Shown here one piece after another: positions 21,113 to 46,200 of a DNA stretch of 64,000 nucleotides; position 1 is the first letter of the stretch, and each line of letters opens with the position of its first letter. The stretch is taken from NCBI GenBank assembly GCA_030390025.1, contig CM059431.1, forward strand, positions 125,304,001-125,368,000, given 5' to 3'. The translations under genes were made by a program, and so were the position numbers. The DNA is from Squalus acanthias (taxonomy: Eukaryota). The notes beneath the pieces are model-generated. The model worked only from the letters and a program-made list of their open reading frames with translations. It did not search any database and had not been told where the DNA came from.

Positions 21113-22399
21113 TCATTTTCTTAATAAGAGCTGTTATTATATTGTTTGAGAAGCAAGCAGAAAGATCTGTATCTGTATAAAGAGACAAATCATTTGGAGT
21201 TCCTTTGCATTCCACTGAAGGCTAATCTTTTTCTGAAATAATTTTCTTCATTAGGCTTGATACTGATGCACTTTGTAAACAACTTAATAAAAAACAATAA
21301 TGTACACTTGATAATAATATAACAGCTGTAATCTGGCCTATAGATTCAGAATATTATAAACATGAGCAATGCATGAGTCGTTTCTAAGTGTCATTTGAAC
21401 CCTGGGATTAGATTATTGTCCTGAAATTACTCCAGGGTCTCTGTAATTTCTTTATTGCATACATACTGTAAATTTTATGGGACAGTTTTATCCAAGTCTT
21501 GAGCTTATTTTTATACTGCTAGCAGATGTTTATTTAGATTTTGAAGGCTAGTATCCTCTATATCAATGTGTGATAGTATTTAAGTGGAAGGATTAATGAT
21601 TGTGTCATTGTTGGTTAAGCAAACATTATTGAGAAATAAATTGCAATTGAACAACAGGAAAATTTGTGACAGTTTATATCGTAAAGAAATGGAATCTTGT
21701 GGGAATAGAATAAAGGGATTCTTTTAAGATGTATTGTTTCCTCTAGCATTCCTCTTTTATCCTTAACAGTTCAGTCGCTTTGACATTATTTTTTATGCTG
21801 ACGCAAATGGCTGGAAAGCAAGGGTTTTCTTCTCAAGTAACAGGGTTTTGGTCTGTCCCTGGTGACTGTTGATAACACTGTCAAATGAAACCTGTAACAT
21901 GTTCATTTTTAATGGCTTCCACCTTTAATACTGATTTACTGCATCAAAGTGAAGTATTGCAGTTTGTCACATGTAATGGTAGAAGTCTCCAATCCTTTTA
22001 CAATGCCTCCATTATTTGGATCTTGTACACAAAGATAAATCCAACGACTTTGATTTTCTGTTTATTTTTCTTGTGGAAATGAATGAGATTATAAGTGCAT
22101 AATTCAGACTTGGTGCCCTACAGACTGCTGCAGCGCCAGAATAGAAATATTGGCCCAGATATTCCAATCCCTACGGTGGGTACGTGCTGTGTACCCACCC
22201 GTAGGGACATCGGAAATGCCGGTTTCAGGCATGCACAGCGCATGCGCTGAAAACCGGCATTTCCGATCTGTCAAGAATGCTCTTGACAGATCCTCCGGCT
22301 GCCCTGGAGAAGGGCCTCTGCGGGCGGAGAGTTCCGCTTTTTGGAGACCTTCCGCCCGCAGAAAACCCTTGCAATTCTTACGCCTGGTAAAAGCAGGCG

Positions 22400-23988
22400 T
22401 AAGAACATAAGAACATAAGAACATAAGAAATAGGAGCAGGAGTAGGCCAATCGGCCCCTCGAGCCTGCTCCGCCATTCAATAAGATCATGGCTGATCTGA
22501 TCCTAACCGCCAATCTACTATCTATCACAGAACCATCTCCTGCATCTAACAGAATTGCACACACGAAATAGGAGCAGAATCAGGCTTCACAGTCCCTGGG
22601 CCCGCTCCACTACCCACAGGGCCATGACCGATCCGAACCTAGACTCATGTCCAAATTCCTGCCCGCTCCCCGTAACCCTTAATGCCCTTTACTTCTAGGA
22701 AACTGTCTATTTCTGTTTTAAATTTAATTAATGTTGTAGCTTCTACAGCTTTTTGTGGCAGCATATTCCATGGACCTACCACCCTCTGAGTGAAGTAGTT
22801 CCTCCTCATCTCAGTTTTGAAAGAGCAGCCCCTTATTCTAAGACTATGTCCCCTAGTTCTCGTCTCACCCGTCATCGGGAACATCCTCCCCGCATCCACC
22901 CGATCCAACCCCTTCACAATCTTATATGTTTCAATAAGATCGCCTCTCATTCTTCTGAACTCCAATGAGTAGAGTCCCAATCTACCCAACCTCTCCTCAT
23001 ATGACCACCCCCTCATCCCCGGGATTAACCGAGTGAACCTTTTTTGCACTGCCTCGAGAGCAAGGATGTCTTTCCTTAAGTAAGGACACCAAAACTGTAT
23101 GCAGTATTCCAGGTGCGGTCTCACCAATACCTTGTACAACTGAAGCAATACCTCCCTATTTTTATATTCTATCCCCCTAGCAATGAAAGCCAACATTCCA
23201 TTTGCCTTCTTAATCACTTGCTGCACCTGCATACTAACCTTTTGAGTTTCGTGCACCAGGACCCCCAGATCCCTTTGCACTTCAGTACTCTCCAGTTTCT
23301 TGCCATTAAGATAATAAATTGCTCTAGGATTTTTCCTGCCAAAGTGCATCACCTCACACTTTCCAGTGTTGTATTCCATCTGCCAAATCTCTGCCCACTT
23401 ACTTAGCCTGTCTATGTCCCCTTGCAGGTTTTTTATGTCCTCCTCACTCACTACTTTCCCTCCCATTTTTGTATCATCTGCAAATTTTGATATGTTACAC
23501 TTGGTCCCTTCCTCCAAATCGTTAATATAGATTGTGAAGAGTTGGGGACCCAGCACTGACCCCTGTGGAACACCACTAGTTACTGATTGCCAGTCTGAGA
23601 ATGAACCATTTATCCCAACTCTTTGCTTTCTGTTAGATAGCCAATCCTCTATCCATGCCAGAATATTACCCCCAATCCCGTGATTTTTTACCTTAAGCAA
23701 TAATCTTTTGTGTGGCACCTTGTCAAATGCCTTTTGGAAGTCTAAATACACTACGTCCACTGGTTCCCCTTTATCCACTCTATATGTTACTTCCTCAAAG
23801 AACTCCAGCAAATTTGTCAAACATGACTTCCCCTTCGTAAAACCATGCTGACTTTGTCCTATTAAATTATGATTATCCAAATGTCCTGTTACTGTTTCCT
23901 TAATAATGGACTCCAAAATTTTACCTACCACAGATGTTAGGCTAACCGGTCTATAGTTACCAGCCTTCTGTCTACTGCCCTTTTTAAA
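22400..23988 (-). mobile_element. Young 5'-truncated CR1 LINE
   Basis: Uninterrupted RT ORF and a perfect (TAAGAACA)n tail at about 22400-22428. Confidence 0.95.
22645..23931 (-). CDS. CR1 ORF2 reverse transcriptase, C-terminal 428 aa (open but 5'-truncated)
   Basis: QHGF, YLDFQKAFD, GVPQGSVLGP, FADD, RDLGV, RPHLEY motifs with no stop. Confidence 0.9.
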   Translation of the reverse strand: MVGKILESIIKETVTGHLDNHNLIGQSQHGFTKGKSCLTNLLEFFEEVTYRVDKGEPVDVVYLDFQKAFDKVPHKRLLLKVKNHGIGGNILAWIEDWLSNRKQRVGINGSFSDWQSVTSGVPQGSVLGPQLFTIYINDLEEGTKCNISKFADDTKMGGKVVSEEDIKNLQGDIDRLSKWAEIWQMEYNTGKCEVMHFGRKNPRAIYYLNGKKLESTEVQRDLGVLVHETQKVSMQVQQVIKKANGMLAFIARGIEYKNREVLLQLYKVLVRPHLEYCIQFWCPYLRKDILALEAVQKRFTRLIPGMRGWSYEERLGRLGLYSLEFRRMRGDLIETYKIVKGLDRVDAGRMFPMTGETRTRGHSLRIRGCSFKTEMRRNYFTQRVVGPWNMLPQKAVEATTLIKFKTEIDSFLEVKGIKGYGERAGIWT

Positions 23989-28144: not shown

Positions 28145-30955
28145 AACAACAACATCCATTGAATATAGCACCTTTAATGTAAAAAATGTTCCCAAGGAAC
28201 TTCACAGTGGTGTAAATAAAAATAGATGCCGAGCCAAAGAAGGAGAGATTAGGAGGGGTGACTGAAAGCCTGTTGAAAGAAATGGGTGTCCAGGACGGTC
28301 TTAAAGGAGGAGAGGGAGCAGAAGGATTTTAGGGAGGGAATTCCAGAGTGTGTGGCCTAGGTTCAGCCACTAATGGTGGGATGGAAGGAGGAGGGAAAAG
28401 GAAAAGATGCCAGAGTTCAAAGAACAGAAAGTACAGAAGGAGTAGTACAACAGGAGGAGGTTATGGTGATAGGGATGGGCAAGGTCGTGGAGGGATTTAA
28501 ACACAAGGATGAGAATTTAAAAGTTGTGGAATTTGGGAACCGGAACCAATATAGGTAATTGAGGACAGGGGTGATGAGTGAGTGGGACTTGATGTGGGAT
28601 AGAATACAGATAGCAGAGTTTTGGAGGAGCTGATATTTACAGAGGGTGGGGGATAGGAGGGTGGAGGATGCAAGGCTGGCCAGAAGAACTTTGGAGACAT
28701 TTATCAAGTGTTTACCAAAGAAGAGGACTTTGCCAAAGCTATGGTAAATGAGGAGGTTGGAGGGATACTGGATGAGATAAAAATAAAGAGGAGCTACTAG
28801 TAAAGCTGGCCGTACTTAAAGTAAATAAATCACATTGCTGAGGGAAGTAAGGGTAGAAATTGCGGAGGTGCTGGCCACAATCTACCAATCCTCCTTAGAT
28901 ACAGGGGTGATGCCAGAGGACTGGAGGATTGCAAATGTTGCACCCTTGTTCAAAAAAGGGGAGAAGGATAAACCTGACAATTACAGGCCAGTCAGTTTAA
29001 TGATGCTGGTGGGGAAGCTTTTAGAAACAATCTGGAGAAAATTAAAAGCCACTTGGACAAGTATGGACTAATAAAGGAGATCTAGCACGGATTTGCTGAG
29101 GGCAAATTGTGTTTGACTAACTTGATTGAGTTTTTTGATGGGGTAACGGAGAGGGTGGATGAGGGCAGTGCAGTTGATGTTGTGTATATAATCTTTCAAA
29201 AGGCGTTTGATAAAGTACCACATAATAGGCTTGTTAGCAAAATTGAAGCCCATGGGAAAAAAGGGGCAGTAGCAACATGGATACAAAATTGGTTAAGGGA
29301 TAGAAAACAGAGAGGGGTGGTGAATGGCTGTTTTTCAGACTGGAGGGAGGTATGTTTAGGTGTTCCCCAGGGATCAGTACTAGAACCACTGCAGGTTTTG
29401 ATATGCATTAATGACTTGGACTTGGGGGTACAAGGCACAAAATTTGCAGATGGCACGAAACATGAAAGTGTAATAAACAGTGATGAAGATAGTAATAGAC
29501 TTCAAGAGGACATAGACAGGCTGGTGGAATGGGTGGACACATGGCAGATGAAATTCAATGCAGAAAAGTGTGAGGAGCTATATATTTGGTAGGAAGAATG
29601 ATGAGAGACAATACCATCTAAATGACACAATTTTAAAGTGGGTGCAAGAACAGAGAGGCCTGGGGGTGTTTGTGCACAAATCTTTGAAGGTGGCAGGACA
29701 GGTTAACAGAGCAGTTAATAAAGCATATGGGATCATGGGCTTTATAAATAGAGGCATAAAGTACAAAAGCCAGGAAGTTATGCTAAACCTTATAAAACAC
29801 TGGATTGGCCCCAGCTGGAGTATTGTGTCCAGTTCTGGGCACCACACTTTAGGAAGGACGTGAAGGCTTTGGAGAGGGTACAGAAGAGATTTACTAGAAT
29901 GGTTCCAGGCATGAGGGATAACAGTTACGTGGATAGACTGGAAAAGTTGGTGTTGTTCTCCTTAGAGCAGAGAAGGCTAAGAGGAGACTTGATAGAGGTG
30001 TTTAAAATCATGAAGGGTTTAGATAGAGTAAATAAAGAGAAACTGTTCCCAATGGCTGAAGGGTCAATAACCACAGCGACGACATGAGGAAAAACTTTTA
30101 CATGCAAGGAGTGGTTAGGATTTGGAATGCACTGCCTGATAGGGTGGTGGAAACAGATTCAATAGTAGCCTTCAAAAGGGAATTGGATAAATACTTGAAG
30201 GGGAAAAACTTGCAGGGATATGGGGAAAGAGAGCCGGGAAGTAGGACTAACTGGATTTCTCTTCGCAAGAGCCGGCGTAGACTCAATGGGCCAAATGGCC
30301 TCCTTCTGTGCTGTACTATTCTATGATTCTATGAATCAAACCTAGAGATGATAACGGCATAAAGTGGCTGTAGTTAGGGATGGAGGTGAACAAAGTTATG
30401 GAGGTGGAGGTAGATGGCCTTTTTGATGGAAATGTTACGGGGTCTGAAACGTAGCAAAGGGTTAAACATAATAGTAAGGTTACAAACAGTCTTGTTTAGT
30501 TTGAGGCAGTGTCCAGGAGGAGGACATTTTGCCAGTGACAAAGGTACGGAATTTGTGTTGTGGGTCAATGGCTTCAGTCTTCCCAAAGTTTACCTGGAGG
30601 AAATTATGTCTTATTCAAGACTGGATGTTGGACAAGCAATCTGAAAGCACAGAGGAAGCGGAGGGGCAAAGAGAGGTGGTGGAGAGCTAAAGTTGCATGT
30701 CATCAATGCACATATGGATGCCAAAGAGGAGGGGTCAAGATAGATCTTTGACAAACTACAGACTTAATGGTGAGAGGGCAGGAAAAGAAGCTATTGCTCG
30801 AGATGCTCTGGCTACAATTGGATAGGTAAGAGTGGATCCAATAGAGGGCAGTCCCACTGAGCTGAACAACAGAGGAGGAGTGATGAAGGAGCATGACGTG
30901 ATCAACTGTCGACAACTGCAGAGAGGTTAAGGAGGGATAATGCACCACTGTAACA
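28145..30955 (-). mobile_element. L2-type LINE 3' region (28145-28696 and 30335-30955) split by a CR1
   Basis: YQLLQNSAICIL..HSLITPVLNYLYW (ORF 28417-28707); VDH..LL..L, WIHSYLSN (ORF 30703-30990). Confidence 0.8.
28697..30333 (+). mobile_element. CR1 LINE, degraded RT region
   Basis: ORFs 28835-30326 with PEDWRIANV, NYRPVSL, FQKAFD, GVPQGSVL; tail ctatgattctatga. Confidence 0.95.
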
Positions 30956-31494
30956 TTCACAGAGGCTAGAATCAAAGAATGATACTGCACAGATGGAGGT
31001 CATTCGGACCACCGTGCCTGTGCCGGCTCTTTGAAAGAACTATCCCATTAGTCCCATTCCCCTGCCCTTTCCCCATAGCCCTGCAAACATTCCCCTGTAA
31101 GTATTTATCCAATTTCCTTTTGAAAGTTATTATTGAATCTGCTTCCACCGCCCTTTCAGGCAATGCATTTCAGATCATAACAACTCGCCACGTAAAAAAA
31201 ATCTCTTCATCTCGCCTCTGGTTCTTTTGCCAATGACCTTAAATCTGTCTCCTCTGAATACTGACCCTTCTGCCACTGGAAACAGCTTCTCCTTAATTAC
31301 TCTATAAAACCCTTCCTGATTTTGAACACATCTATTCAATCTCAACTTAACCATCTCTGCTCTAAGGAGAAAAACCCCAGCTTCTCTAGGGTCTCCGCAT
31401 AAGTGATGTCCCACATTCCTGGTACTATTCTAGTAAATCTCCTCAGCACTCTTGACATCCTTCCTAAAGTGTGCAGCCCAGAATTGGACACAAT

Positions 31495-32172
31495 GGGGGG
31501 AATTTTAACCCCAAATAATGGATGGGTTCGGTCAGGTGGGAGGTTACAATATGAAAAATGTGAATCCCGACCTCAACCCACCTCCAACCTGCCCACTTCC
31601 GGGTTTAACAGATGCAGAACGGTGGGCGGGCATATTATAATGAGACTGGAAGCCTCTGATTTAAGCTGCTGTGCAGGTTTAACTGTGGCCAGTCGGGGAT
31701 CCCAGGGTCTCGGGATTCCTGGCAGCTGCAGCGAGGCGAGGACAGCCTTGGGGAGCAATCCTTGTGGGCTGGGAGGAGCAGGAGTGCTTCCTCCCAGCCC
31801 CCCAAGCTCCTCCACTATCAGCCCCGCCCTCCCGGTGTCAGGGACAACTCTGCCCCCAGGTTGGACCCCCGCCCAACCTGGGCTCGGGGATTGAACCTCC
31901 CCCCGGAACTGTTCGACCACCCCTACCACCCCCCCGGGTTGAAGTTTGGACACCCCCCCCCTCCACGGGTCAGGGGTCGTATCCCCTTGGGAATTGAGCC
32001 CATCCCCCAGGGGGGCAGCTTCCTGTCCAGCGTTCCCCGCCCTATCGATCAGGCTGACTTCTGGGCGGGGGACCTGCTGGTGACGTGTGGGGAAGGGTTT
32101 CCTGCGCTCTACCAGCTCCACCCCCTCCCACACCCCCCACTCCCGGTGAGTCAAAACTTCAAAATTCAGGGC
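31495..32172. mobile_element. GC-rich MITE with AAT TSD
   Basis: Ends GGGGGGAATTTT / AAAATTCAGGGC; AAT at 31492-31494 and 32173-32175; CR1 rejoins across it. Confidence 0.88.
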
Positions 32173-32235
32173 AATATTCCAGCTGACCAGTGAGTTATGT
32201 AGGTTTAGCCTAACCTCCTTGCTTTTGTACTCTAT

Positions 32236-33113
32236 AGCCACGATTTTTCCTATCGATGCGGCTTGAGGGTGGGACAGCTGCCTTCCGGGTTCCAGTCCCG
32301 CCCCCAACAACAGCAGATGCACAGACGCGATTTTGCGTCAATTGGCTTTGTTGAGCCCACCCTGCAGGCTTGCCGGCCAATTAAGAGGAAGCCGGTGTGA
32401 GATGACGTCAGTTGATGACGCGTCATCTGCCGGTTTTCTTAAAGGGGCCATGCACAATTTTTTTTGACAGCTGATTTTTCAGTGTTTGACAGCATTGAGG
32501 TGCTGCAAACACTGACAATCACTGTACAAAGGTGAGCCCTTGCACCCAGGCTGTCAAGTGACTCCCTCCTTAAGCTAGAACAGATGGCAGCTGCAGGTGA
32601 GGTTACAGAAGCGATCTGTCACTGGTGAGAGAGGTTCTCCCAATGAGCTGGGACTACACACACAATCCAAAACTTGTCACCTACAGAAAAGTGTAAATGC
32701 ATTAAAAATGATTTTCCCAACATTTTCTTACCTCTGAAACTCACCAGTGTACCATTGGATCCTTCACACCACTTCTGCAGCTGCCATCAATGCAGAAACA
32801 TTACAGTAGACCCACAGCATGCCACACTTACCTGGCATGGTGTCCGGATGTCAGGAAGCCCACAATAGACCTGTGAAAATTGCAAAAAGCCTCTTAACTG
32901 CCTGTTAACAACCTGTTAACAAGCAGTTAAGTGGCTATAATCCTCTTCCCGCTGCTAGGTGTCGGGTCCCTGCGCAAATCGAGGACCCGGCACCTAGGAA
33001 AGATTGTCTGGAGGCGGGTTGACAGCGGGTTTCTGACCCACTGTCAATCTTTGCGATTTTGCCGGATGTCCTGCCTTCTAACCCACCCCCTGAGCGCCGG
33101 CAAAATTCCAGCC
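32236..33113. mobile_element. Shorter, inverted member of the 10734/52033 non-autonomous Harbinger family, TAT TSD
   Basis: TAT at 32233-32235 and 33114-33116; shares tgatgacgcgtca, cagcattgaggtgctgcaaacactgac and gccggcaaaat blocks. Confidence 0.88.
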
Positions 33114-34745
33114 TATGCCTTTGATTATAAAGCCAAGAATTCTGGCCATTTAACAGCCTTCTCAACTTATCCTGCGACCTTCAAAGATTTATGTACATAT
33201 ACCCCCAGGTCTCTCTGTTCCTGCACCCGCTTTAAAATTGTACCATTTAGTTTATATTGCCTCTCCTTCTTCTTCCTATTAAAATGCATTACATCAAACT
33301 TGTATCACTTCAAAATTCTCTGTGTTAATTTGCATCTGCCATGTGTTTGCCCATTTCACCAGTCTGTAGTCTGTCTATGTCCTCCTGAAGTCTATTACTA
33401 TCCTCCTCACTGTTTACTACATTTCCGAGGTTTGTGTCATCAGCAAACTTTGATATTGTGCCCTGTGTACCCAAGTCCTGGTCATTAATATATATCAAGA
33501 AAAAGCAGTGGTCCTAATACTGACCCGTGGGGGACACCACTTCTTTCGAGTCTGAAAAATAACCATTCACCACTACTCTCTGCTTTCTGTCTCTGAGCCA
33601 AATTTGTATCCATGTTGCCACTGCCCCTTTAATCACGTAAGCTTTAATTTTGCCAACAGGTCTATTATGTGGTACTTTATAAAATGCTTTTTGACAGTCC
33701 ATGTACACAACATCAACCGCATTACCTTCATCAACCCTCTCTGTTATTTCATCAAAGAACTCAATCAAGTTAATCAAACAAGATTTGCCTTTAATTAACC
33801 CATATTTTTCCAAGTGAAAATTAATTTTGTCTCAGATTATTGTCTCTAAAATTTTCCCCACCACAGACTTTAGGCTGACCGGCCTGTCGTTGCTCCGTAT
33901 TATCCCTCTCCCCTATTTTGAACAGGCGTAACATTTACAATCCTCGACTGCTCTCGCACCACTTCCATAAGGAGAATTGGTAGATGGTGGCCAGAGCATC
34001 TGCTATCTCCACCCTTACTTCCCTTAGCAAACTAGGATGTATCCCATCTGGACCGGGTGACTTTTCTACTTTGAGCACTGCCAACCTTTTAAGTACCTCC
34101 TCTTTATCTATTTTTATCCTATCCAATTTCTCTACTCATGGAAATGTTTTCTATCTCCTCCTTTATTATGACACTGGCAGCATCCTGAGCCGTGCCCTAT
34201 GCCTCCACAAGAAGATCACCTTTTTAGTCCCTATTCGGCCCATCCTTCCATTTACTACCCATATGATTATCAAAGACTCTGAGTTCCCTTTTATTTTACC
34301 TGCTAATCTATTCTCACACACATCCTTTTTGCCCCTTATTTCCTTTTTTGGTTCTCTTCTGTACTTTTTGTATTCAGCTTGTTTCTCTACTGTATTATGA
34401 GCCTGACATTTATCTAAGCATACTTTTTCATTTTAATATCTATGGCCGCAAAATTCGGTTCTGTAGCTTTGGCTGGTTTGAAGAAAAAATGCCGTCTGCC
34501 TCATTTCTGCCCAGTTCCGGCATGGCCCACGCTGAACACCATCTTGGTGAGGGCGATAGCGTGGGTAGTACGTGTGTGCGCCGGCAGCATGCAGAGTAGG
34601 AAGATCGTGACATTAATCAGCGTGCAACGCTGATTTGACTCATGGCTTGCCATTTTCAACCTCGCCGCTCCATTCAACACACTCTCTTAAATAAAAGTGA
34701 GAAGTCGCACAACACCAGGTTATAGTCCAACAGTTTTATTTGAAA

Positions 34746-34783
34746 TCACAAGCTTTCGGAGCGACCGCTCCTTCGTCAGGTGA
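34746..34783 (-). ncRNA. Mirror copy of the hammerhead ribozyme motif in the inverted arm
   Basis: Exact reverse complement of 35915-35952. Confidence 0.8.
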
Positions 34784-35243
34784 AGTAAAGGAATACAAAA
34801 TCGACAAAGCATATATAGATAGAGAACAATGCATGTGTAACTTACAATGGCAGACGACTACATTTAATCCTCCTGACTGTTTATCTGCCGAGGTGTGACA
34901 AAAGGCAATCAGGTCAGCCAGGAAGGAACCACATCAAAGACATAGCAAGATACAACTGAGACAATGAGGTGGGGTTACAGGGGGTCCAATGTGTCAAAAG
35001 CTGCAGTCGGTATGTAAAACGATAAACTTTAAAATTTTTACTTTTTTACTGGGAATCACATCTGTGAACAAGCCAACGACGACTCGAGTCTGGATGACTC
35101 TACGTCATGTATCGTGACATAAACCCAAGATCCCGGTTGAGGCCGTCCTCATGAGTGCGGAACTTGGCTATCAGTTTCTGCTCGATGATTTTGCGTTGTC
35201 GTGTGTCTCTAAGGCCGCCTTGGAGAACGCTTACCCGCAGATC

Positions 35244-35598
35244 TACCCACCAGGTACATGGTACATACTCATGTGACTCGGCCAACGTTGTCTTCCTCAT
35301 ACGTTGCAGGAAAGAATGCACCGCGGCATGGTACATCGGCGAGACCATGCAGACACTGAGACAACGTATGAACGGACACCGCGCAACAATCGCCAGGCAG
35401 GATTGTTACCTCCCAGTCGGGGAACACTTCAGCAGTCAAGGACATTCAGCCTCGGATCTGCGGGTAAGCGTTCTCCAAGGCGGCCTTAGAGACACACGAC
35501 AACGCAAAATCATCGAGCAGGAACTGATAGCCAAGTTCCGCACTCATGAGGACGGCCTCAACCGGGATCTTGGGTTTATGTCACGATACATGACGTAG
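35244..35598 (+). CDS. GIY-YIG endonuclease domain of a Penelope-like element (C-terminal fragment)
   Basis: SCDSANVVFLIRC...YIGET...LRQRMNGH...VGEHF...RKIIEQELI...GLN. Confidence 0.92.
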
Positions 35599-35914
35599 AG
35601 TCATCCAGACTCGAGTCGTCGTTGGCTTGTTCACAGATGTGATTCCCAGTAAAAAAGTAAAAATTTTAAAGTTTATCGTTTTACATACCGACTGCAGCTT
35701 TTGACACATTGGACCCCCTGTAACCCCACCTCATTCTCTCAGTTGTATCTTGCTATGTCTTTGATGTGGTTCCTTCCTGGCTGACCTGATTGCCTTTTGT
35801 CACACCTCGGCAGATAAACAGTCAGGAGGATTAAATGTAGTCGTCTGCCATTGTAAGTTACACATGCATTGTTCTCTATCTATATATGCTTTGTCAATTT
35901 TGTATTCCTTTACT

Positions 35915-35952
35915 TCACCTGACGAAGGAGCGGTCGCTCCGAAAGCTTGTGA
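35915..35952 (+). ncRNA. Minimal type I hammerhead ribozyme motif
   Basis: TCAC-CTGACGA-A-GGAGC(GGTC)GCTCC-GAAA-GCTT-GTGA: core boxes, helix I TCAC/GTGA, helix II GGAGC/GCTCC, palindromic helix III. Confidence 0.85.
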
Positions 35953-37304
35953 TTTCAAATAAAACTGTTGGACTATAACCTGGTGTTGTGCGACTTCTCA
36001 CTTTTGTCCACCCCAGTCCAACACCGGCATCTCCGCATCATGACCACTCTCTTAAATAGGCACAGCTAATCATGTGTTCAACTGCACAAGGGACCCGCCA
36101 CCAGCGCTACTTAAAGAGATACATCCAGCTTGCAGGTTACTTGCTTATTGCTATGTATTGGCTCTTGCAGAGTTTGTAGGAATATTGGGTTGCTGAAAGA
36201 GATTTGAAAAGTTGTTAAAGTGAGCAGGGAGTGCTGCTGGACATTAGGAAGGTGTTGGCTGCTACTGGAAGGCCTCTGAGTACATCACTTGCTCCCAGTC
36301 ATGGGGGCTCTAGTTGCAGTCACCCTTGTGCTGCAGCATGATGGAGATGGAGCAGAGGCAGCAAAGAAGACAAGCTGCTTGCAGAGGGAGGAGAAGGAGG
36401 AGGGTTCTCAGCAGGAGGCCTTACCCAACTAGGGTCTTTAAGGAACACTTCTCCTACCTGCATCTAAGCCAGGAGCAGTGTGTTCGGCAGCTCCGCTTCA
36501 TGAAGGAGGAGGTCACAGAACTCTGCCACATCTTGGAACCAGACCTGCAGCCTCAGAGCATGGTGACGATGGCACTGCCAGTGGCCCTCAAATGACCGTG
36601 GCCCTGAATTTTTTCACCAGCGGATCCTTCCAGGCTGGAACAGGCTACATAGCAAACATCTCGAAGTTCGCCATCCATCGCTGCATCCGGGTGGTCACAG
36701 ATGCTCTGTACGCTAGAAGAGGGGAATTCATTGTCTCCTTTCTAAACAGAGAGAAGCAGGAGGAGCGCCCATGTGGCTTTGCCAAGATAGCAGGCTTCCC
36801 CATGATGCAGGATGCCATCGACTGCACACTGTGGCTTTGCAGATGCTGCATCTCAATGGTGAGATGTACTGTAAACGCAAAGGGCACCACTCACTTCATG
36901 TGCAGTTAGTGTGCAACCACGCCCAGCACATCATGCTGGTGAATACCCGCTATCCTGGCAGCAGTCATGATCTCTTCATCCTGCGCCAGTCCGCTGTGCC
37001 AGCAATCTTCCAGCCACCTGTGGGTGGCTGCTCGGCGACAAGGGATATCCGCTCTACACCTGGCTGATGACTCCCCTTCGCAATCTCACCACTTGTGGCC
37101 AGGACTCATATAATGAGAGCCATGCTGCCACGAGGAACGTCACTGAGCAGACCATCGAGGTGCTGAAGCAACGGTTCCGCTGTCTTGAACACTCGGGAGG
37201 AGCCCTCCAGTACTTGCCGGAGCGGGTGTCCCAATTCGTGTTGGTCTGCTGCATCCTCCACAACTTGGCCATCATGAGGGCATAGCCCTTGCCACCACTC
37301 AGGA

Positions 37305-37408
37305 GAAAGAAAGACTTGCATTTATATAGCGCCTTTCATGACCACCGGACGTCTCAAAGTGATTTACAGCCAATGAAGTACTTTTGGAGTGTAGTCACTG
37401 TAGTAATG
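37305..37408 (-). mobile_element. 3' fragment of Deu-domain SINE inserted in the acidic tail of transposase D
   Basis: Matches 62950-63050; flanked by aggag repeats. Confidence 0.8.
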
Positions 37409-37902
37409 AGGAGGAGGAGGAAGGGAGGAGGCAGCCTGCACATCCATATTCTAGACAGGCTGTCCATCATCAGTCTCTGGTACCCCTAAATGAAACTTTG
37501 TAGGAGCACAAGGACAGGCAAAGGCACATGGAAGACAGAATGAAACTCCAGATCCCCACTGCTCAACACTTCTCCACCTTACCATACCTCTGTCACGGAA
37601 CATCACAGTGTCCTCTTGGCCACAATGCTGAAATGAAAACCACCACCAAAAAAAATTCCAAACCAAAGTCAACTAATCACCCTTGTGCATTCCCTTAGTG
37701 ACTGTCTTGTGTGTGCCTTTGCCTGTCCTTGTGCTCCTACGCAGTGCTACCCCAGTGGCTGCAGCATGGCTGGTGGAAGGCTGCTGACTTTCAGTGGGGG
37801 ATACTGCAGATGGCCTTGCAGAACGACCTCGAGGAGCTCTGCGCCTGGTAGACCCAGCTTCGGACTGCACCACCTCGGCATGGGTGGCAGTAGTCTGGGC
37901 TG

Positions 37903-38101
37903 AAAACAGAAAATGCTGGAAATACTCAGCAGGTCAGGCAGCATCTGTGGAGGGAGAAACAGAGTTAACGTTTCGTCATCGACCTGAAACGTTAACTCTG
38001 TTTCTCTCTCCACAGATGCTGCCTGACCTGCTGAGTATTTCCAGCATTTTCTGTTTTTATTTCAGATTTCCAGCATCCGCAGTATTTTGCTTTTGTGTTG
38101 T
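37903..38101 (+). mobile_element. Short Penelope-like fold-back insertion
   Basis: 72-bp arms 37903-37974 and 37986-38057; TSD AGTAGTCTGGGCTG at 37889-37902 and 38102-38115; right arm matches 61853-61960. Confidence 0.9.
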
Positions 38102-39842
38102 AGTAGTCTGGGCTGGCTGGCTGACAGGCAACAGCAAGGGCAGTGGTGGAGTAGCAGTGGTGGGAGGATGAATGCTGTTATCCTGAGAGAGGACAGCAGG
38201 GCCGTCCTCCACGGAGCCACTGCCACTCCCCTGGGACAGCGCCTCAGCAATCCTAGTAATCTGTTGGAGTACAGACTGCTGGACTGCTGTGACACCCTGC
38301 AAGCCCCTTTCAACACTAGTAAACCCAGCCATGATGGCGGCAGTTTGTGCTTGCATGACTTCAGTCTGAGCTTCCATTGCAGCACTCTGACGTTGGGTGA
38401 CTTCTGCTTGTGCTGCAATTGAAGCTGAGACTTTGGTCATCAGATGCGGCATGATGGTTAGGCTTAGGGTTAGCGTTAGGCCCTCTTCCCCTACTCCGTA
38501 CCTCCTGAAAATGTTATAACTAAGAATGTTAATTTTCCAGCCCTGTCCAAACTTAAGCCACTCTCTGTTATAGCTTTAACTTATCCCTCCATTCATTAGT
38601 GCTTCTAACTTGTTGATATGTTTTGAATGTTTAGTGCATTTGAATCAGATTTCCTTGTTTAGCTGTAAAGCCTGTAGAAACAGGCCCAGTTAAGTAAGTC
38701 ATTCATATTACCAAATCACAGGTTATTCAGAATGGACTATGGCTAGTTCTCTGGACTGCAAAGGGTAATAACTTTCTTTTCATGTGTCTTTTCTAAACTC
38801 ACCTGTGTTTAGTACTCCATTAATTAATTTAGATCATGTATTGTGCAATGAGACAGGGTTAATTAGCAATCTCATAGTAAAGGATCCTCTGGGGCAGAGT
38901 GATCATAATATGATAGAATTTCACATTAAGTTTGAGAGTGACTTGCCTAAGTCCGAAACTAGAGTCTTAAACTTAAATAAAGCCAATTACATGGTTATGA
39001 GGGTGAGTTGGCTAAGGTAGATTGGAAAAATAGATTAAAAGGTATGGCAGTAGATAAGCAATGGCTAGCATTTAAAGAAATATTTCATAATTCTCAACAA
39101 AGCTACATTCCATTGAGAAAAAAAACTCCATGGGAAAAGTGATCCAACCGTGGCTAACTAAAGAAGTTAAGGATAGCATTAGATTGAAAGAAGAAACTTA
39201 TAATGTTGTGAAGAATAGTAATAAGCCTGAGGATTGGGAGAGTTTCAGAAACCAGCAAAGGATGACCAAAAGATTGCTAAAAAGGGAAAAAATAGAATAT
39301 GAGAGAAAACTAGCAAGAAATATAAAAGCAGATTGTAAGAGCTTCTACAAGTAAGTAAAAAGGAAAAGAGTAGCAAAAGTAAACGTTGGTCCCTTAGAGA
39401 CTGAGGGGGAAAAATTTGGTTGGCTTGCACCTCCCGTTAGCGCCCTAAGAGGGCGCTAATGGGGTGCAAAGCAACTAGCGCCCGGACGCGGCGATGTTTG
39501 CGCCGCTCACAAAATTGACGAGAGTTCTTGCGGCGCCGCTAAAGTTTAGCGCCCCGATCTCCTGCGCCCGCAGATCGTGACGTCAGTCGAGCGTGCAACA
39601 CCCTGGTGGTGCCCCGGACCAGATATTGAGTGGCGCCCCCCTCCTTTCCGCCTGGAGCAAGCAACGACAGGCAGACTGGAATGTTTCCCAGTTGGTGAGG
39701 GGCTGGGGGGACACTATTTAAAGGCGGCCTCTTCCTGGCTTTTTCTGTGGTAGACATTTTTGCACCACTCATTCTGACAGAGAGAGTGATTCTGAGAGAG
39801 AGATAGAGAGAATGCATAGAGTCAACGCTGTGTGAAGTAGTT

Positions 39843-41072
39843 TTGGCTACTGAGCATCACTTTGCAGGTACTTTTGGATTTGACCTTCATTACTTTGATT
39901 GCCAAGAAACTGTGGGGGCTGCACTGATTCGGGGCGTCGTCCTGCACCTGCAGAATCAGAGGCAACAGAGATGCAGAGAGAGAGTGGCAATCATGGCCAG
40001 ATGGAGGAGGGCCAACAGGCCTCTGCACAGGAGACCTTACCCTCCCAGGGTATTCCGGGAACAATTCTCCTACATTAATTTGTCTGAGGAGCAGTGTTTG
40101 CGCGGGCTATGCTTCAGCAAGGAGGTGGTCACTGAGGTCTGCCACCTGCTGCAGCCAGATCTGCAGCCTCTACTGAGGACCAGGATGTCTCTGTTGGTGG
40201 CAGTGAAGGTCACAGTGGCTCTGAACTTTTATGCCACCGGCTCCTTTCAAGCAGCTACTGGGGACATCGCCAATATCTCCCAGTTCGTGATCCATTGCTG
40301 TATCTGTCAGGTCACAAATGCCCTCTTTAAAAGGAGACGCCAGTACAACTCTTTCCCGATGACCCGGGCCAAACAGCATGAATGCGCATTGGGCTTTGCG
40401 AGGATAGCAGACTTCCCCATGGTGCAGGGCGCCATTGACTGCACGCATGTGGCACTGCGGGCACCACATGAGAATGCAGAGGTTTTCCGAAACTGCAAGG
40501 GGTTCCACTCCTTAAACGTCCAGTTGGTCTGTGACCACAGACAGCTGATACTCGCTGTCAATGCCCGCTATCCTGGCAGCAGCCACGATGCTTTCATCCT
40601 GCGCCAGACTGCTGTGCCAGAACTTTTCCAGGCACCGCATCAGCCAAGTGGTTGGCTCCTCGGGGACAAGGGTTATCCACTGTGCACCTGGCTGATGACA
40701 CCGCTCCGTAACCCCAACACCCCTGCTGAGCTGCGGTACAATGAGAGCCATCTCGCCACCAGGAACATCATTGAGCAGACGATCGGCGTGCTCAAGCAAT
40801 GGTTCCGCTGTCTGGACCACTCAGGAGGAGCCCTGCAGTACTCGCCTGAGCGAGTTTCCCACTTCGTAGTTGTGTGCTGCATGCTGCTTAACCTGGCAAT
40901 CCTCAGGACCCAGCCAATGCCACCAGGCCTTGGAGCACCACCAGAGGAGGAGGAGGAAGAGGAGGAGGAAGAGGAGGAGGATGATCATCAGCAGCACCAA
41001 GGCGGGAGTGAGGCCCACAATGGTGAAACTGCAAGGGCCGTCCGTCAACGGTTGATAACAAGCCGCTTCTAG
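39843..41072 (+). CDS. Harbinger DDE transposase, open reading frame intact (true start uncertain, possibly ATG 39993)
   Basis: [30 protein letters not shown]; acidic C-terminal tract; no stops. Confidence 0.92.
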   Translation: MATEHHFAGTFGFDLHYFDCQETVGAALIRGVVLHLQNQRQQRCRERVAIMARWRRANRPLHRRPYPPRVFREQFSYINLSEEQCLRGLCFSKEVVTEVCHLLQPDLQPLLRTRMSLLVAVKVTVALNFYATGSFQAATGDIANISQFVIHCCICQVTNALFKRRRQYNSFPMTRAKQHECALGFARIADFPMVQGAIDCTHVALRAPHENAEVFRNCKGFHSLNVQLVCDHRQLILAVNARYPGSSHDAFILRQTAVPELFQAPHQPSGWLLGDKGYPLCTWLMTPLRNPNTPAELRYNESHLATRNIIEQTIGVLKQWFRCLDHSGGALQYSPERVSHFVVVCCMLLNLAILRTQPMPPGLGAPPEEEEEEEEEEEEDDHQQHQGGSEAHNGETARAVRQRLITSRF

Positions 41073-41369
41073 GCCCCTACTGAGGAAATGGCTTCTGGCA
41101 TGGAGAACAACATGAATGAAAGCAACCCGCAACCCCAAAGCCGGCCAAGGCAGCAATGATTCCAAAAGCCAAACCTGTACATTTTGAATACAAAAACTTT
41201 TTTATTTTACAAACTCTGTGTGTGTCATTTCTTCATGACAAACTAACAGAAACAAACACAAAAAATCATTCATTAACATAACTGGTTCTCACAACCTGGA
41301 GATAATGTCCAAAACACGAAACAAAAGTTTGAAGACGAACCTCGGCCTTTAATAAAAAATTGACCAACA

Positions 41370-43201
41370 TTTCGTCACACCTCCTACTTTTTGCTTTTCG
41401 AGGGTGATCTCCTTCCCTTGCGCACTTCACCCCTTCCCACCCTACTGCTCCTCCGTAATGGGGCCCCAGTGGCTGCAGCAAGGCTGGTGGAAGGCTGCTG
41501 ATGTTAGAACCTGAGACTACAGATGTCCTTGTAGGACGGCCTCGACCAGGTCTGGGCCTGGAGGGCCCGGCTGCAGACTGCACCAACTCTGCATGGGCGG
41601 CAGCAGTCTGGGCTACAGGTGGTGGCAAGTGCAGTGGAGAAGTGACAGTGGTGGCAGCAGGAATGCTGTCATCTTGAGAGAGGACAGCAACTCCCTGCTC
41701 GACCAACACACTGGCACTCCCACAGGGCAGCACCTCAGCATCCAGAGCAATCTGCTGGAGCACAGATTGCTGGCCTGCTGCGGCGCGGTGAGAGCCCCGG
41801 GGAAATGTGTCCGAACCAGCGAGGATGGCAACAGTCAGTGCTTGCGTGGCCTCAATCTGAGTCTGCATGAGACCAGTCTGAGATTGGATCACGGCTGCCA
41901 GTGACTGAATTGCAGCACTAAGCATTAGCGTGGCATCCGCCTGTGCTACAGCGTAGTGCTCCATACTCCTTGCCAGTGCATCAGTGCAATTGGGCACCCT
42001 TCCCACTGCACCCATGAGCTCAGTGTGCATGTCCACGTCCTGGGTGTTCATTTCAGCGATGAGCTTCTCCTACTCTGCGTCCAATGCAGCAGGACTCACT
42101 GGCCTACTCTCCTCCGGGGAGAAGGCCCCCGAGCTTCCCTAGCCACATCGCGTTGCTGCAGCCCGCTGGGTCCAGGAGCTTCACCCTCATCAGACCCATC
42201 CCCCCTGCTCCCCTCCAGGGAAGACCTGGTCCCAGTGTGGGCATGGGCTTCCTCGGGAGAGGGTGGCGCTGATGCTCCGGCTTCCTCTTCCTCCTCGTCT
42301 GCAGCTTCACTCCCACTGGCAACTGGAGGGCCCGTCTCCTCAGCTGGTGAATCAGCATCTGAAAGCAGGGAGGTACAAGAGTGGCTTTAGCGTGAGGACA
42401 GGGTGGCAGTAAGGGTGGAAGGAGTGCAGCGATTTAGTAAGTTGGATTGTAAGTGTCAAAGGTTGGTGTTGTGAGGGACAAGTGGAATGAGAGAGGAGAG
42501 AAAGCTGATGACCTTACCATTGCTGTCCCGAATGGGGTCAGCCTCTCCAGGGGCGACGGGACCAAGCACCTGGCTTGCCACAATCCTCTGGACGCGCGCC
42601 TCAAGATCACTGAGCGGTTGCAACTGAGGCCGCCCTCCACCCGTCCGTTGCTGCTGTCTCCTATTGTGAGATAGCTTGGCCTGCAAGAAAAAGGACGGTG
42701 TCTGAGTAAATATACAGCCATGGTCTTGCCTGATGTGCCTCCCATAATTAAATAGCCCTGAATGTATGCAGCCATGGTCTTGCCTGATGTGCCTCCCATA
42801 GTTGAATAGCCCTTACTGTATGCAAGGTGTGGAATGCGCATGTGTGTTTCATGAGAGCGCCATAGGTGTTGGATGAGTGTTGGGCATTGGGGTTTTAAGA
42901 CCCGCTGGCCATAGAGTGAGGTTGAAATGGAGGGATGGAGAGGTATTGAAAAAAAGCCACTCACCCTGACAACCCGAGTGAGGTCGTTGAACTTTTTGTG
43001 ACATTCAGTATGGGTCCTGGGCACCATGCTTCTGGAGGAGACGTGCTGAGCCACCTCCCTCCACACTCTTCTGTAGTCATGCGGCAAAGGCCTCCTGCCA
43101 CTCTCAGGGAAGATTATAGATCTTCTGCGCTCCACCGCACCAACCAGAGTCTCCAAGGCCCACTCGCTGAAGCACTGAGCTCGTTCTCTCACCCTCTCCA
43201 T
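41370..43201 (-). pseudogene. Myb/SANT-like gene of copy B, 3 exons (43201-42965, 42680-42518, 42358 to about 41370); frameshifts in exon 3
   Basis: Exon 1 is 237 nt (phase 0) and exon 2 is 163 nt (phase 1), both open; 1-bp deletion near 42112 relative to copy A. Confidence 0.88.
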
Positions 43202-46200
43202 AGTCCTTGGCTGGAAAATGTAGTCACAGGTCTCTCCAGGCCGAGATTCTAGGCTCCAATGAGCAGGGTGTGGCTGGAGAGCAAGATTGACCCTCCCCTT
43301 TAAGAACTGGCTGGCGCCAGTGTGTCTGTGTTCCATCGCTAATTGACATCACCTGCGCTGCGCCCGCGCTCTGAGTTAGCACCTCGCTCCTCGGCCTTTG
43401 TGCCTTAAGATAGGTGTGAAGCGCCTGATTTAGCGCTCCAATCACCTCCAGGGGCGATAGAAGCCAAGTTTGCAGTCGGAGGCGATAATTAGCGCCAGGC
43501 ACTAAACTTTGCACCCGGCCGATAATTGCGCCCCAAACGGGGCGATACTGAATCGCTCCCCCTTTGACTGCAGAAATTATTATGGGGAATAAGGAAATGG
43601 CAGAAATGTTAAACAAATATTTTGTACCTGTCTTCACAGTAGAAGACACAAAAAGCATACCAAAATTGATAGGGAACCAAGGGTCTAATGAGGGTGAGGA
43701 ACGTAACGTAATTAATTTAAGTAGAGAAAAAGTACTAGAGAAACTAATGGGACTAAAAGCCAACAAATCCCCTGGACCTGACGGCCTATATCCTAGGGTT
43801 CTAAAAGAGGTGGCTGAAGAGATAGTGGATGCATTGGTTTTGATCTTCCAAAATTCCCTAGATTCTAGAACGGTCCCAGCGTTTGGAAGGTCGTAAATGT
43901 AACACCGCTATTCAAGAAAGGATTTAGAGAGAAAACAGGGAACTACAGGCCAGTTAGCCTGACATCAGTCGTCGGGAAAATGCTGGAATCCATTGTTAAG
44001 GAAGTGGTATCAGGGCACTTAGAAAATAGTAACATGATTAGGCAGAGTCAACATGGTTTTATGAAAGGGAAATCGTGTTTGACAAATTTATTAGAGTTTT
44101 TTGAGGATGTAACTAGCAGGGTAGATAAAGGGAAACCAGTGGATGTAGTATATTTGGATTTCCAAAAGGCATTCGATAAAGGTTATTACACAAGATTAGG
44201 GCTCATGGGGTTCGGGGTAATATAATAGCATGCATAGAGGATTGGTTAACGGACAGAAAACAGAGAGCAGGGATAAACGGATCTTTTTCAGGTTGGCAGG
44301 CTGTAACTAGTGGGGTGCCGCAAGGATCAGTGTTGGGGCCTCAGCTATTAACAATCTATATTAATGACCTAGATGAAGGGACCGAGTGTAATGTATCCAA
44401 GTTTGCTGATGATACAAAGCTAGGTGGGACAGTAAGCTGTGAGGAGAACACAAAGAGTCTGCAAAGGGATATAGATAGACTAAGTGAGTGGGCAGTAAGG
44501 TGGCAGATGGAGTATAATGTAGGGAAATGTGAGGTTATTCACTTTGGTTGGAAGAATAGAAAAACAGAATATTTTTTAAATGGTGAGACACTTTTAAATG
44601 TTGGTGTTCAGAGAGATTTGGGTGTCCTCGTGCAAGAAACACAGAAAGCTAGCATGCAGGTACCGCAAGCAATAAGGACGGCAAATGGCATGTTGGCCTT
44701 TATTGCAAGGGGGCTGGCTTATAAGAGTAAGAAAGTCTTGCTACAATTGTACAGGGCCTTGGTGAGACCACACCTGGAGTACTGTGCACAGTTTTGGTCT
44801 CCTTATCTAAGGAAGGATATACTTGCCTTGGAGGCGGTGCAACAAAGGTTCACTAGATTGATTCCTGGAATGAGAGGGCTGTCCTATGATGAGAGATTGT
44901 GTAGAATGGGTCTATACTCTCTGGAGTTTAGAAGAATGAGAGGTGATCTCATTGAAACATACAAGATTCTGAAGGGGATTGACAGGGTAGATGCTGAGAG
45001 GTTGTTTCCCCTGGCTGGAGTGTCTGGAACTAGGGGGCATAGTCTCAGGATAAGGGGTAGGCCACTTAAGACCGAGATGAGGAGGAATTTCTTCACTCAG
45101 AGGGTTGTGAATCTTTAGAATTCTCTGCCCCAGAGGGCTGTGAATGCTGAGTCTCTGAGTATATTCAAGGCTGAGATAGATAGATTTTTGGACTATAGGG
45201 GAATCAAGGGATATGGAGATGGGGCGGGAAATTGGAGTTGAGGTCAATGAACAGCAGGCTCGAAGGTCCGTATGGCCTACTCCTGCTCCTATTTCTTATG
45301 TTCTTATTAAAACATGTTAACAAAAAAGGGTTCGGCTCAGCCTATAGAATCTTTCACTTGAGACTGCAAGGACAACCATAATACTAATCTAGGGGGATAC
45401 ATTTGCTCTGTGCATTTTGTGCAATAAAATCATAAACTCGCTGATAAAGAACATTTATGATTTCACTACAAAGAGCACACAAAGGAAATTTTCCGCCATA
45501 ATTAGCAGCCACTCTTTGCAAAACTAGAATCAGAGAAACTGTCTGTATCTGAATTTATACAACCCGAGCACATTCGCTTCAATTCGTATTTCCAGTTTGA
45601 AGTTCATCCCTGTTGGATATCATTGAAAGCCTGTCTGTTGACTGTCTAAATGCTCTCCTTATTACAAGAAAATGTCAAGCAGCTGGGCAATGCCTCCCTC
45701 CAGGTCTTAATATCTAAATTGCATTCTAGGATGTATCCCACTGGGGCAGGGGGTCAGGGGGTTGCTTTCAGCATAAAATAAAAAACAAGACTGTTTAATA
45801 AAATTCTGTATCCCTTCTTTGCCATATCATTGAAATAAATCAACAGGTGTTTGACCTATCTTTCATAAGAGATCTGATTATTAATAATTTACTTAAATGT
45901 CTAGAGGCTGGCTCTGTCTCCCTGGTTGAAAATCTAATAAAATATTATCCATTAAAAGCATCTGTCTACATTTAGCGCTCCAAATCAGATAATACATTCG
46001 GCACTGAGCATATTTTTTTATTTGCTTCTTTGAAAAGATAATCTTTTTGTGGGTCCTGTTAACTATTTACCATTATCTTTCCACGTATGCTTCAAGCAAT
46101 TCCTCTTCGTTCAATGCAGCCAATCATTTTAGATTCAAGACGGTATTTAAGTTTCCTAGCAATATGATTATTTAGTATGCGAACTAAGATGCCCATTCAT

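Follow-up and report, generated by a model that had tools for sequence, protein, structure and literature searches.

The near-perfect palindrome at positions 34680..36058 of the window (the whole 64,000-nt stretch of Squalus acanthias DNA that was analyzed) is, with a probability of about 0.85, an integration by-product of a dead, 5'-truncated Penelope-like insertion that has the standard head-to-head layout. This reading is backed directly by the identity of the element family, both ends of the insertion, the target-site duplication, an empty site in a paralogue, and a tail that ends at the start codon of the family. As a single locus it is of small importance, being another truncated copy in a repeat-filled stretch, and it is a clean specimen for how Penelope-like elements create an inverted copy and a one-sided tail.

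Anatomy of the Palindrome

The first-pass annotation had described a palindrome of about 1.3 kb with 551-nt arms, a loop, an unpaired one-sided 3' extension, and a 14-nt direct repeat. Sequence comparison confirmed that the palindrome is real and has this anatomy (Table 1), except that the arms differ at three positions (34802/35896, 34962/35736, and 35177/35521) rather than at the two that had been counted. The repeat, CACTCTCTTAAATA, is exact and has no further occurrence in the window; when 20,000 pairs of positions with similar spacing were drawn at random, 3 showed a comparable direct repeat.

Table 1. Features of the palindrome and of its surroundings (window coordinates)
Feature	Position	Strand	Details
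Decayed PIF/Harbinger-type DNA transposon hosting the palindrome	34579..38452	+	Extent from paralogue matching; neither true end located
Left copy of target-site duplication	34680..34693	+	14 nt; overlaps left arm by 1 nt, the last base also pairing as first of the inverted arm; single-copy empty site in Harbinger paralogue 6972-6796 (-)
Inverted, tail-less copy of the 3' part of the element	34693..35243	-	551 nt; C-terminal half of GIY-YIG, 3' untranslated region, hammerhead
Minimal type I hammerhead, minus copy	34746..34783	-	C3 34779, H17 34750
Inversion joint	35243..35245	.	0-2 nt microhomology; from loose ends of contigs and arm comparison
Loop, N-terminal half of GIY-YIG endonuclease	35244..35454	+	211 nt; motifs ~35290-35340, two Cys between them
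Final ~117 codons of Penelope-like ORF, up to stop codon	35244..35598	+	89% to P0001
Sense arm	35455..36005	+	551 nt; derived bases 35521, 35736, 35896
Minimal type I hammerhead	35915..35952	+	Helix I 35915-35918/35949-35952; core CUGACGA 35919-35925; extra A 35926; helix II 35927-35931/35936-35940; GAAA 35941-35944; palindrome AGCU 35944-35947; predicted cut after 35948
AATAAA within arm	35958..35963	+	10 nt past predicted cut; mirror at 34735-34740 (-)
One-sided tail	36006..36044	+	39 nt, 69% A+C; ends at family start codon ATG 36040-36042, then AC of Thr codon; loose ends 36041/36042
Right copy of target-site duplication	36045..36058	+	14 nt
DDE_Tnp_4 fragment in Harbinger host	36971-37282
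Second insertion, same layout, other family	37889..38115	.	Duplication 37889-37902/38102-38115, 14 nt; arms 37903-37974/37986-38057, 72 nt, 1 mismatch; loop 11 nt; one-sided tail 38058-38101, 44 nt

When the arms were compared with contigs of the family, the inverted arm carried the family letter at all three mismatched sites and the sense arm carried a derived base at each. Both arms have the same minority alleles at 35488 and 35689, which points to a single source lineage. Upstream of the inversion joint, the family continues as ...GAGGACACC, and position 35244 is T in the window, where the continuation of the arm agrees with the family in having C. An origin of the arm differences by ADAR editing was unsupported, as only one of the three is A-to-G.

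The Harbinger paralogue contains the 14-mer once, at an empty site. We looked for terminal repeats of the host Harbinger and found none. The second insertion lies 1.8 kb from the palindrome; its target duplication is also 14 nt long, and two of three paralogues have gap-free empty sites.

Identity of the Element

Judged by its protein relatives, the insertion derives from an endonuclease-bearing Penelope-like retroelement that is present in many copies in sharks, and it is truncated at the 5' end. A protein search gave 54 matches among 111 candidates, the best being an RT-GIY-YIG protein of Heptranchias (89% identical), and the named top matches came from sharks. The reverse transcriptase, which precedes the endonuclease within a single ORF in such elements, is missing from the truncated copy and is present in the relatives P0001 (89%) and P0010 (RVT_1, DKG motif). 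The family is very abundant (~25,000 contigs in X1, flank included).

The loop had been said to hold the N-terminal part of a GIY-YIG domain, and we agree. The endonuclease domain shows VFLIRCRKECTAAWYIG, with R, H, E, and N conserved. Its Pfam match is weak (E 0.0036, below the cut-off), and Pfam gave no match to a longer 147-aa frame. Fold comparison placed I-TevI best (Z 10.6, rmsd 2.1, 91 aligned), and the top three rows were all GIY-YIG enzymes; Foldseek also ranked I-TevI first, with nothing at E<=0.001. A sequence search of the PDB yielded two chance matches only, and a metagenome scan, in which 1 of 102 stretches passed with a 30% match, was uninformative.

The element probably belongs to the Neptune clade. 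The CX2-5CxxC linker between reverse transcriptase and endonuclease falls outside the truncated copy, and the pattern was matched in 21 of the 54 relatives, including the closest; the label follows from this motif in relatives rather than from a tree, and the motif is also common to Nematis and Naiad. Non-LTR retrozymes consist of non-coding hammerhead units repeated head to tail in tandem; a retrozyme was rejected, given the head-to-head layout with ORF sequence and no tandem copy in the window.

An inverted 5' copy with a one-sided tail is a layout already published for Penelope-like elements. Craig et al. (2021) describe, in the text of their Figure 2, a 5'-truncated inverted copy and, at one end, a tail of 30-40 bp (PMC8557442), and Pen2a of Adineta has a 9 bp duplication and a 31 bp tail (PMC3846280). 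The shark insertion resembles such canonical insertions in its inverted 5'-truncated copy beside a sense copy, its tail at one end only (39 nt, against the published 30-40), its short target duplication (present once at the empty site of the paralogue), its C-terminal GIY-YIG domain, and its pseudo-LTR hammerhead. It differs in that it has no full ORF and in that its inverted arm, with a length of 551 nt, is long and reaches into the ORF; in addition, the duplication is 14 nt rather than the 8-10 nt of Adineta, and the shark joint has no palindrome. The earlier description, in which a Penelope-like element was inserted with its 5' segment inverted and with a tail and a target duplication, is supported.

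Ends of the Element

The end of the tail is shared across the family: loose ends with mixed flanks were found at 36041 (63 contigs, X5) and at 36042 (10 contigs, X19), and P0013 (Scyliorhinus) departs from the tail frame where the window tail ends. The tail frame in the window, PVQHRHLRIM, matches HRHLHIM of P0055, which continues directly into the ORF N-terminus, and by this comparison the pseudo-LTR end overlaps the ORF start of the next unit. At the tail-less end, a joint at 36006 was present in all three DNA runs (one contig each), and this joint carries little weight because its short side is 22 nt. Both ends of the element can be fixed to the base in the shark family, at +5 and -35 relative to the start codon. 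Other opposite-strand joints in X5 lie at 35295/35415 and 35912/36002; the contig sequences suggest that inversion points differ among copies. Per-bin depth drops across 36001/36002, and contig depth is unable to rank the parts.

The tail can be compared with that of PAc, a Poseidon element of Anolis carolinensis, which nicks and extends both strands and whose tail is bounded by its two RT start sites (PMC11167929). In both elements the tail lies between two putative RT start sites, is A/C-rich, and is folded against upstream sequence; both have an AT-rich target and a hammerhead upstream of the ends. In PAc, however, RT starts 111-118 nt inside the ORF, which begins within the hammerhead, whereas the shark tail is part of the 5' untranslated region, with its end 2 nt beyond the start codon. 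Poseidon also lacks the CX4CX2C linker that relatives of the shark element have.

Formation of the Palindrome

As the origin of the palindrome, we infer two-nick priming at two RT start sites, and give this route roughly even odds. The GIY-YIG endonuclease would nick the two strands at positions separated by 14 nt. From the bottom-strand end, reverse transcription would be primed at 36044, the outer start site, and proceed for ~800 nt; from the top-strand end, it would be primed at 36005, the inner start site that lies 39 nt further in, and proceed for 551 nt. The two truncated cDNAs would then be joined almost blunt. L1 twin priming is a comparable process: two target nicks each prime cDNA, and the products join with little microhomology, leaving the 5' part inverted within a single target duplication, with largely non-overlapping parts of one RNA copied. 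The shark insertion also has such an inversion within a single duplication, but the same 551 nt were copied twice, which would require two templates, or else a tandem RNA or fold-back.

Fold-back copying is the strongest competitor, though we think it somewhat less probable than two-nick priming. A cDNA would be made from the tail to 35244, and its 3' end would snap back near 35454 and copy itself outward; the product, cut or stopped 39 nt short, would then join the left target end. The arms duplicate fully and share the two minority alleles, as a single template predicts, and these alleles fit fold-back at least as well as they fit two-nick priming. Self-priming has also been suggested in print and is favored by Arkhipova (2013; PMC3846280), and Craig et al. 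(2021) trace the tail to an intermediate that is resolved by the endonuclease (PMC8557442). The microhomology at the joint is only 0-2 nt, however, and fold-back does not by itself account for a stop at the position of an RT start mapped in a related element. First-strand errors would moreover reach both arms, yet all three differences are in the sense arm; this argument is weak because later mutations would all hit one arm with p = 0.25. Against two-nick priming, Frangieh et al. (2024) found the start site to be alike on both strands and do not discuss inverted copies (PMC11167929), and a title and abstract search of a literature that omitted most subscription journals found no two-nick model for Penelope-like elements. 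The remaining routes are together improbable. With both ends defined to the nucleotide and copies plentiful, a genome-wide count could distinguish two-nick priming from fold-back.

It is also very doubtful that two separate head-to-head insertions, or an inverted duplication that arose later at the DNA level and was accompanied by gene conversion, gave rise to the palindrome. The arms (3 of 551 positions differ) appear younger than the divergence between the window and the S1 right-flank contig (4 letters and 1 gap in 279), and this contrast, with p about 0.045 if the rate is taken as error-free, could mean conversion between arms. Against these origins, a single target duplication flanks the whole unit, target DNA is absent from the joint, and the layout recurs in published elements and in the neighboring insertion.

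Read Support and Age

An assembly or library fold-back artefact, which the first-pass annotation had thought unlikely, is in our estimate very improbable. No contig among those listed crosses the inversion joint, the left junction lies outside the compared stretch, and no run contained half of the sampled words. The exactness of the 14-nt duplication and its single copy at the empty site of the paralogue nevertheless argue for a genuine insertion, as do the three arm differences, which are polarized relative to the family, unlike those of a fold-back read, the coincidence of the outer arm end with a known tail boundary, and the second independent example nearby. In one sample, a 279-nt contig at depth 18 joins the tail to the right flank, with only 19 nt on the element side, below the 31-nt rule. 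No empty allele was seen among the loose ends listed. Palindromes of this kind occur routinely in assemblies of shark genomes, and without reads they should be called neither hairpin-RNA genes nor assembly errors.

The insertion had also been called recent, which holds relative to other repeats and fails in absolute terms: 0.27% per arm equals ~4 million generations at the epaulette-shark rate. At the shark mutation rate, we place the arms at about a million generations or more.

Hammerheads and AATAAA

The proposed hammerhead motif on each strand was recovered by our own descriptor, with C3 at 35919 (+) and 34779 (-), and the descriptor had no matches in 100 shuffles of the window; it matched a third motif at 61837. 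The CUGANGA and GAAA core, helices I and II, the extra base, the G10.1-C11.1 pair, the palindromic helix III region, and an NUH site are all present at 35915-35952. Rfam returned no hammerhead at the gathering score or at E<=5 (three chance-level matches), and folding z-scores of the hammerheads alone were unremarkable (-1.4 and -1.6). Loop II is altered in family variants. In metazoan Penelope-like minimal hammerheads (Cervera and De la Pena, 2014; PMC4209133), helix I is likewise short, an extra nucleotide lies between 9 and 10.1, and the G10.1-C11.1 pair and palindromic helix III region recur. The shark motifs differ in their helix II of 5-6 bp, their CUU cleavage triplet, and their separation of ~1.15 kb, dual motifs on opposite strands having been described at 100-700 bp (PMC4209133).

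The hammerhead and AATAAA are the pseudo-LTR sequence of the family, present twice; a further AATAAA at 34690 (+) is created by the junction. A hairpin ending in a ribozyme and AATAAA had been proposed, but both motifs are internal to the arm, and when a read-through RNA of either strand folds, they become paired along their full length. Freeing the hammerhead within this RNA costs 69 kcal/mol by folding, and its self-cleavage there is predicted to be blocked. Minimal hammerheads require a partner for self-cleavage, either a second copy or a helping protein. They show no activity as monomers in vitro (PMC4209133), and a co-fold of the two copies paired through helix II rather than as a catalytic dimer.

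Functional Interpretations

The palindrome locus is most likely without function, and a functional hairpin-RNA interpretation is unsupported. We regard it as highly unlikely that a read-through transcript forms a 550-bp duplex for Dicer or ADAR and so helps to silence the family. Either strand folds at about -1155 to -1176 kcal/mol, rotifer Penelope copies yield mainly antisense small RNAs (PMC3846280), and the promoter of the Harbinger transposase, a remnant of which lies ~250 nt downstream of the site, could read through. On the other side, a scan of 50 long frames turned up no host gene family (Pfam matches were all transposon domains except one weak low-complexity match), the plus strand upstream of the hairpin would have no promoter belonging to the insertion, the hammerhead and AATAAA are sequestered in the duplex, and the great abundance of the family means that this locus would be no special source of RNA. 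The search of sequencing runs listed no RNA run for the stretch, and X19, a presumed RNA run, gave contigs of the family and paralogues only, which do not bear on transcription of the locus.

Equally improbable is a broader proposal, in which fixed two-site, two-nick priming routinely builds kilobase hairpin loci that, behind a working promoter (possibly that of Harbinger here), become a family-wide source of dsRNA; the element would then seed its own silencing loci, this palindrome being one. The first-pass annotation had also called the site cruciform-prone, which its 211-nt spacer disfavors: in yeast, break frequency is 80% lower already with a 9-bp spacer (PMC8053094).

An inserted Penelope-like copy with mirrored arms

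The palindrome at 34680-36058 is a genuine structure and an ordinary one rather than an exception: it is a truncated shark Penelope-like element (PLE) copy in a head-to-head layout that has already been published, and its host is a decayed PIF/Harbinger-type transposon. The first-pass annotation gave 551-bp arms with two mismatches; the arm length is correct, but we found three mismatches (34802/35896, 34962/35736, and 35177/35521). The lengths that it gave for the loop, the unpaired extension (the tail), and the target-site duplication were all reproduced. The duplicated 14-mer occurs nowhere else in the 64-kb window, and a comparable direct repeat arose in 3 of 20,000 random position pairs. 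When the insertion was deleted by script, the joined flanks matched, through the site, a paralogue lying at 6972-6796 (- strand; 72% over 178 columns), in which the 14-mer region is present once. The left junction generates an AATAAA at 34690-34695 (+ strand), immediately 5' of the hairpin, which could terminate read-through RNA early.

Features of the two insertions, their host, and a related hammerhead
Feature	Position	Size or remark
Direct repeat bracketing the unit (exact)	34680-34693 and 36045-36058	14 nt
Inverted (left) arm	34693-35243	551 nt
Loop between arms		211 nt
Sense (right) arm	35455-36005	551 nt
Unpaired extension (tail)	36006-36044	39 nt
DDE_Tnp_4 of host relic	36971-37282	Pfam
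Second insertion, different hammerhead-bearing family	37889-38115	Same Harbinger relic as main insertion
Solo minimal hammerhead of second family	61833-61963	Helix II and palindrome differ, fold same

A second insertion lies nearby, with a duplication of 14 nt, arms of 72 nt that differ at one position, an 11-nt loop, and a 44-nt one-sided tail. Its empty site is gap-free in two of three paralogues and has nine gaps in the third. A hammerhead remnant lies at its center. From its layout and the hammerhead of a related copy at 61837, this family is probably also Penelope-like. The occurrence of one layout in two families within 2 kb indicates that the layout is routine. The solo hammerhead has neither an inverted arm nor a clear target duplication.

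Family and motifs of the element

A protein search with the frame ending at 35598 yielded 54 relatives among 111 candidates, and the top matches with names were sharks. The closest, a Heptranchias perlo protein (89% identity), carries a reverse transcriptase (RT) and the same endonuclease domain; no RT remains in the window copy, and the N-terminal half of its GIY-YIG domain sits in the loop. The Pfam GIY-YIG match is weak (E 0.0036; 5 of 20 alignment members match at E≤1). In a predicted structure of moderate confidence (pLDDT 67), the domain most resembles I-TevI (Z 10.6, rmsd 2.1, 91 aligned), with T4 EndoII and UvrC next. A CX2-5CxxC linker 5' of the endonuclease domain in 21 of the 54 relatives, including the closest, argues against membership of Penelope/Poseidon and suggests that the family may belong to the Neptune clade. 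Many shark gene models (P0011, P0013, P0025, P0032, P0049, and others) carry the endonuclease piece as predicted isoforms, among them XRCC5, septin 5a, PPP1R12A, a cytochrome P450, and FSTL5, which may reflect annotation noise or exonization.

The segment 35915-35952 has the features of a minimal metazoan hammerhead as defined in PMC4209133: helix I is short, an additional base precedes helix II, the G10.1-C11.1 pair is present, and a palindrome replaces helix III. Rfam gave this motif no score; our own descriptor found three motifs in the window and none in 100 shuffles. Pairs of hammerheads, one per strand and separated by 100-700 bp, have already been reported, and a single minimal motif is described as showing no cleavage (PMC4209133).

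Ends of the unit and its mode of integration

One reading frame of the tail gives PVQHRHLRIM. In the Heptranchias protein P0055, HRHLHIM continues directly into the ORF N-terminus, and another relative, P0056, starts with MTT at that same point; we therefore take the ATG at 36040-36042 as the next unit's start codon and the final two bases of the tail as templated. P0013, a Scyliorhinus gene model, likewise departs from the tail frame there. Counting from the A of this codon, the tail reaches +5 and the inverted arm stops at -35. Among contigs from public runs mapped on 35210-36500, 63 in run X5 have a loose end at 36041 and 10 in X19, a run guessed to be RNA, have one at 36042, with mixed flanks beyond; these positions mark the 3' boundary of the family. 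A joint at 36006, seen in all three DNA runs (two samples) in one contig per run with a short side of 22 nt, hints at another copy ending without the tail.

By eye, the stretch 35995-36016, which straddles the tail-less end just 5' of the start codon, offers a candidate branch point, pyrimidine tract, and CAG, and might act as the 3' splice site of an intron in the 5' UTR; such an intron is known for Drosophila Penelope. The tail (36015-36023) and sequence 5' of it (35966-35974) form a 9-bp stem with the tail-less end inside its loop. This stem may be the counterpart of the A/C-rich stem-loop found where RT starts in the Anolis element; the fold z-score for this part of the sequence does not stand out.

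An inverted 5' copy with a 30-40 bp tail is common in PLEs, and the tail has been ascribed to endonuclease resolution (Craig et al., PMC8557442); self-priming was proposed for the same layout (Arkhipova et al., 2013, PMC3846280). The Anolis element, once purified, was able to nick both strands of its target and to extend them, and its RT began at two sites that flank the tail (Frangieh et al., 2024, PMC11167929). The simplest way of joining these published results, to which we give a probability of about 50%, is that each target nick would prime one cDNA, one at the outer site and the other at the inner site, and that the two truncated products would then be joined. Such a scheme would explain why the mirror arm begins exactly at the tail boundary. 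We did not find this reading stated in the literature searched, outside which most subscription journals fell. L1 twin priming offers a parallel.

A somewhat less probable alternative is that fold-back copying made the mirror arm. At 35488 (78%-93% C in three DNA runs) and 35689 (77%-84% A in the DNA runs), both arms carry the minority letter, which points to a single source lineage or to later homogenization. Such identical haplotypes are explained more simply by fold-back copying, but it requires an additional step to stop at the tail boundary. Given that the family sequence 5' of the loop reads on as ...GAGGACACC, microhomology at the inversion joint amounts to 0-2 nt, and a priming stem is absent. 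Pairing of target end with RNA is possible at both outer junctions, judged from the sequence and the Thr codons of relatives, over 2-4 nt, which is too short to serve as evidence.

Divergence of the arms and the second haplotype

At all three mismatches, the family letter is found in the inverted arm (35521 A, 35736 G, and 35896 G, each in >99% of the depth of run X1), so that the derived base lies in the sense arm each time; the chance that all three changes fall on one arm, either one, is p = 0.25. The three differences give a divergence of 0.27% per arm (95% range 0.06%-0.80%). At the rate reported for another shark, 7x10^-10 per site per generation (PMC10587355), this corresponds to ~4 million generations (range 0.8-11 million) if none of the differences arose with the insertion itself.

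A 279-nt contig from X1 (depth 18) begins within the tail, crosses the duplication, and continues into right-flank sequence, with four other letters and one gap relative to window 36026-36305, and a similar contig was found in X3, from the same sample. The X1 contig has 19 nt on the element side, below the tool's 31-nt rule, and these contigs hint that the insertion is also present on a second haplotype. No contig among those listed for 35210-36500 crosses the inversion joint. The difference between contig and window exceeds that between the arms (3/551), which is a faint sign of conversion between arms, or noise.

Hairpin RNA and cruciform formation

The functional suggestions of the first-pass annotation are not supported. 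It had proposed an RNA hairpin ending in a ribozyme and AATAAA; in read-through RNA of either strand, both are predicted to lie entirely within the duplex, and forcing the hammerhead fold would cost 69 kcal/mol. Because the antisense arm would be made first on either strand, the hammerhead would be captured while emerging. A long RNA duplex, if transcribed, would be a substrate for Dicer or ADAR. It is very improbable that palindromes of this kind serve as silencing loci that the element makes for itself, with this insertion among them. The site had also been called cruciform-prone. For Alu inverted repeats in yeast, a 9-bp spacer is reported to lower breaks by 80% (PMC8053094), and the 211-nt spacer here makes extrusion unlikely; where DNA is single-stranded over a long distance, a hairpin could fold.

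Neighboring repeats

Among 50 long window frames scanned with Pfam, we found no convincing host gene; the matches were to transposase, Myb/SANT, or reverse transcriptase domains, apart from a single weak low-complexity one. There are at least five PIF/Harbinger-type relics (5560-6972, 13859-17826, 36314-38450, 39398-43407, and 49620-50834). Long transposase frames survive in two of them (14323-15435 and 39807-41072), accompanied on the other strand by Myb/SANT frames (17318-17767 and 42434-43348). Three short GC- or AT-rich palindromes of 45-80 nt (59993-60072, 22209-22267, and 57767-57811) had no flanking duplication or further copy in the window. LINE reverse-transcriptase fragments lie at 8336-10349, 22644-23988, 43911-45255, and 29086-33831, and 8336-9130 and 44461-45255 are 95% alike, inverted, and 35 kb apart.
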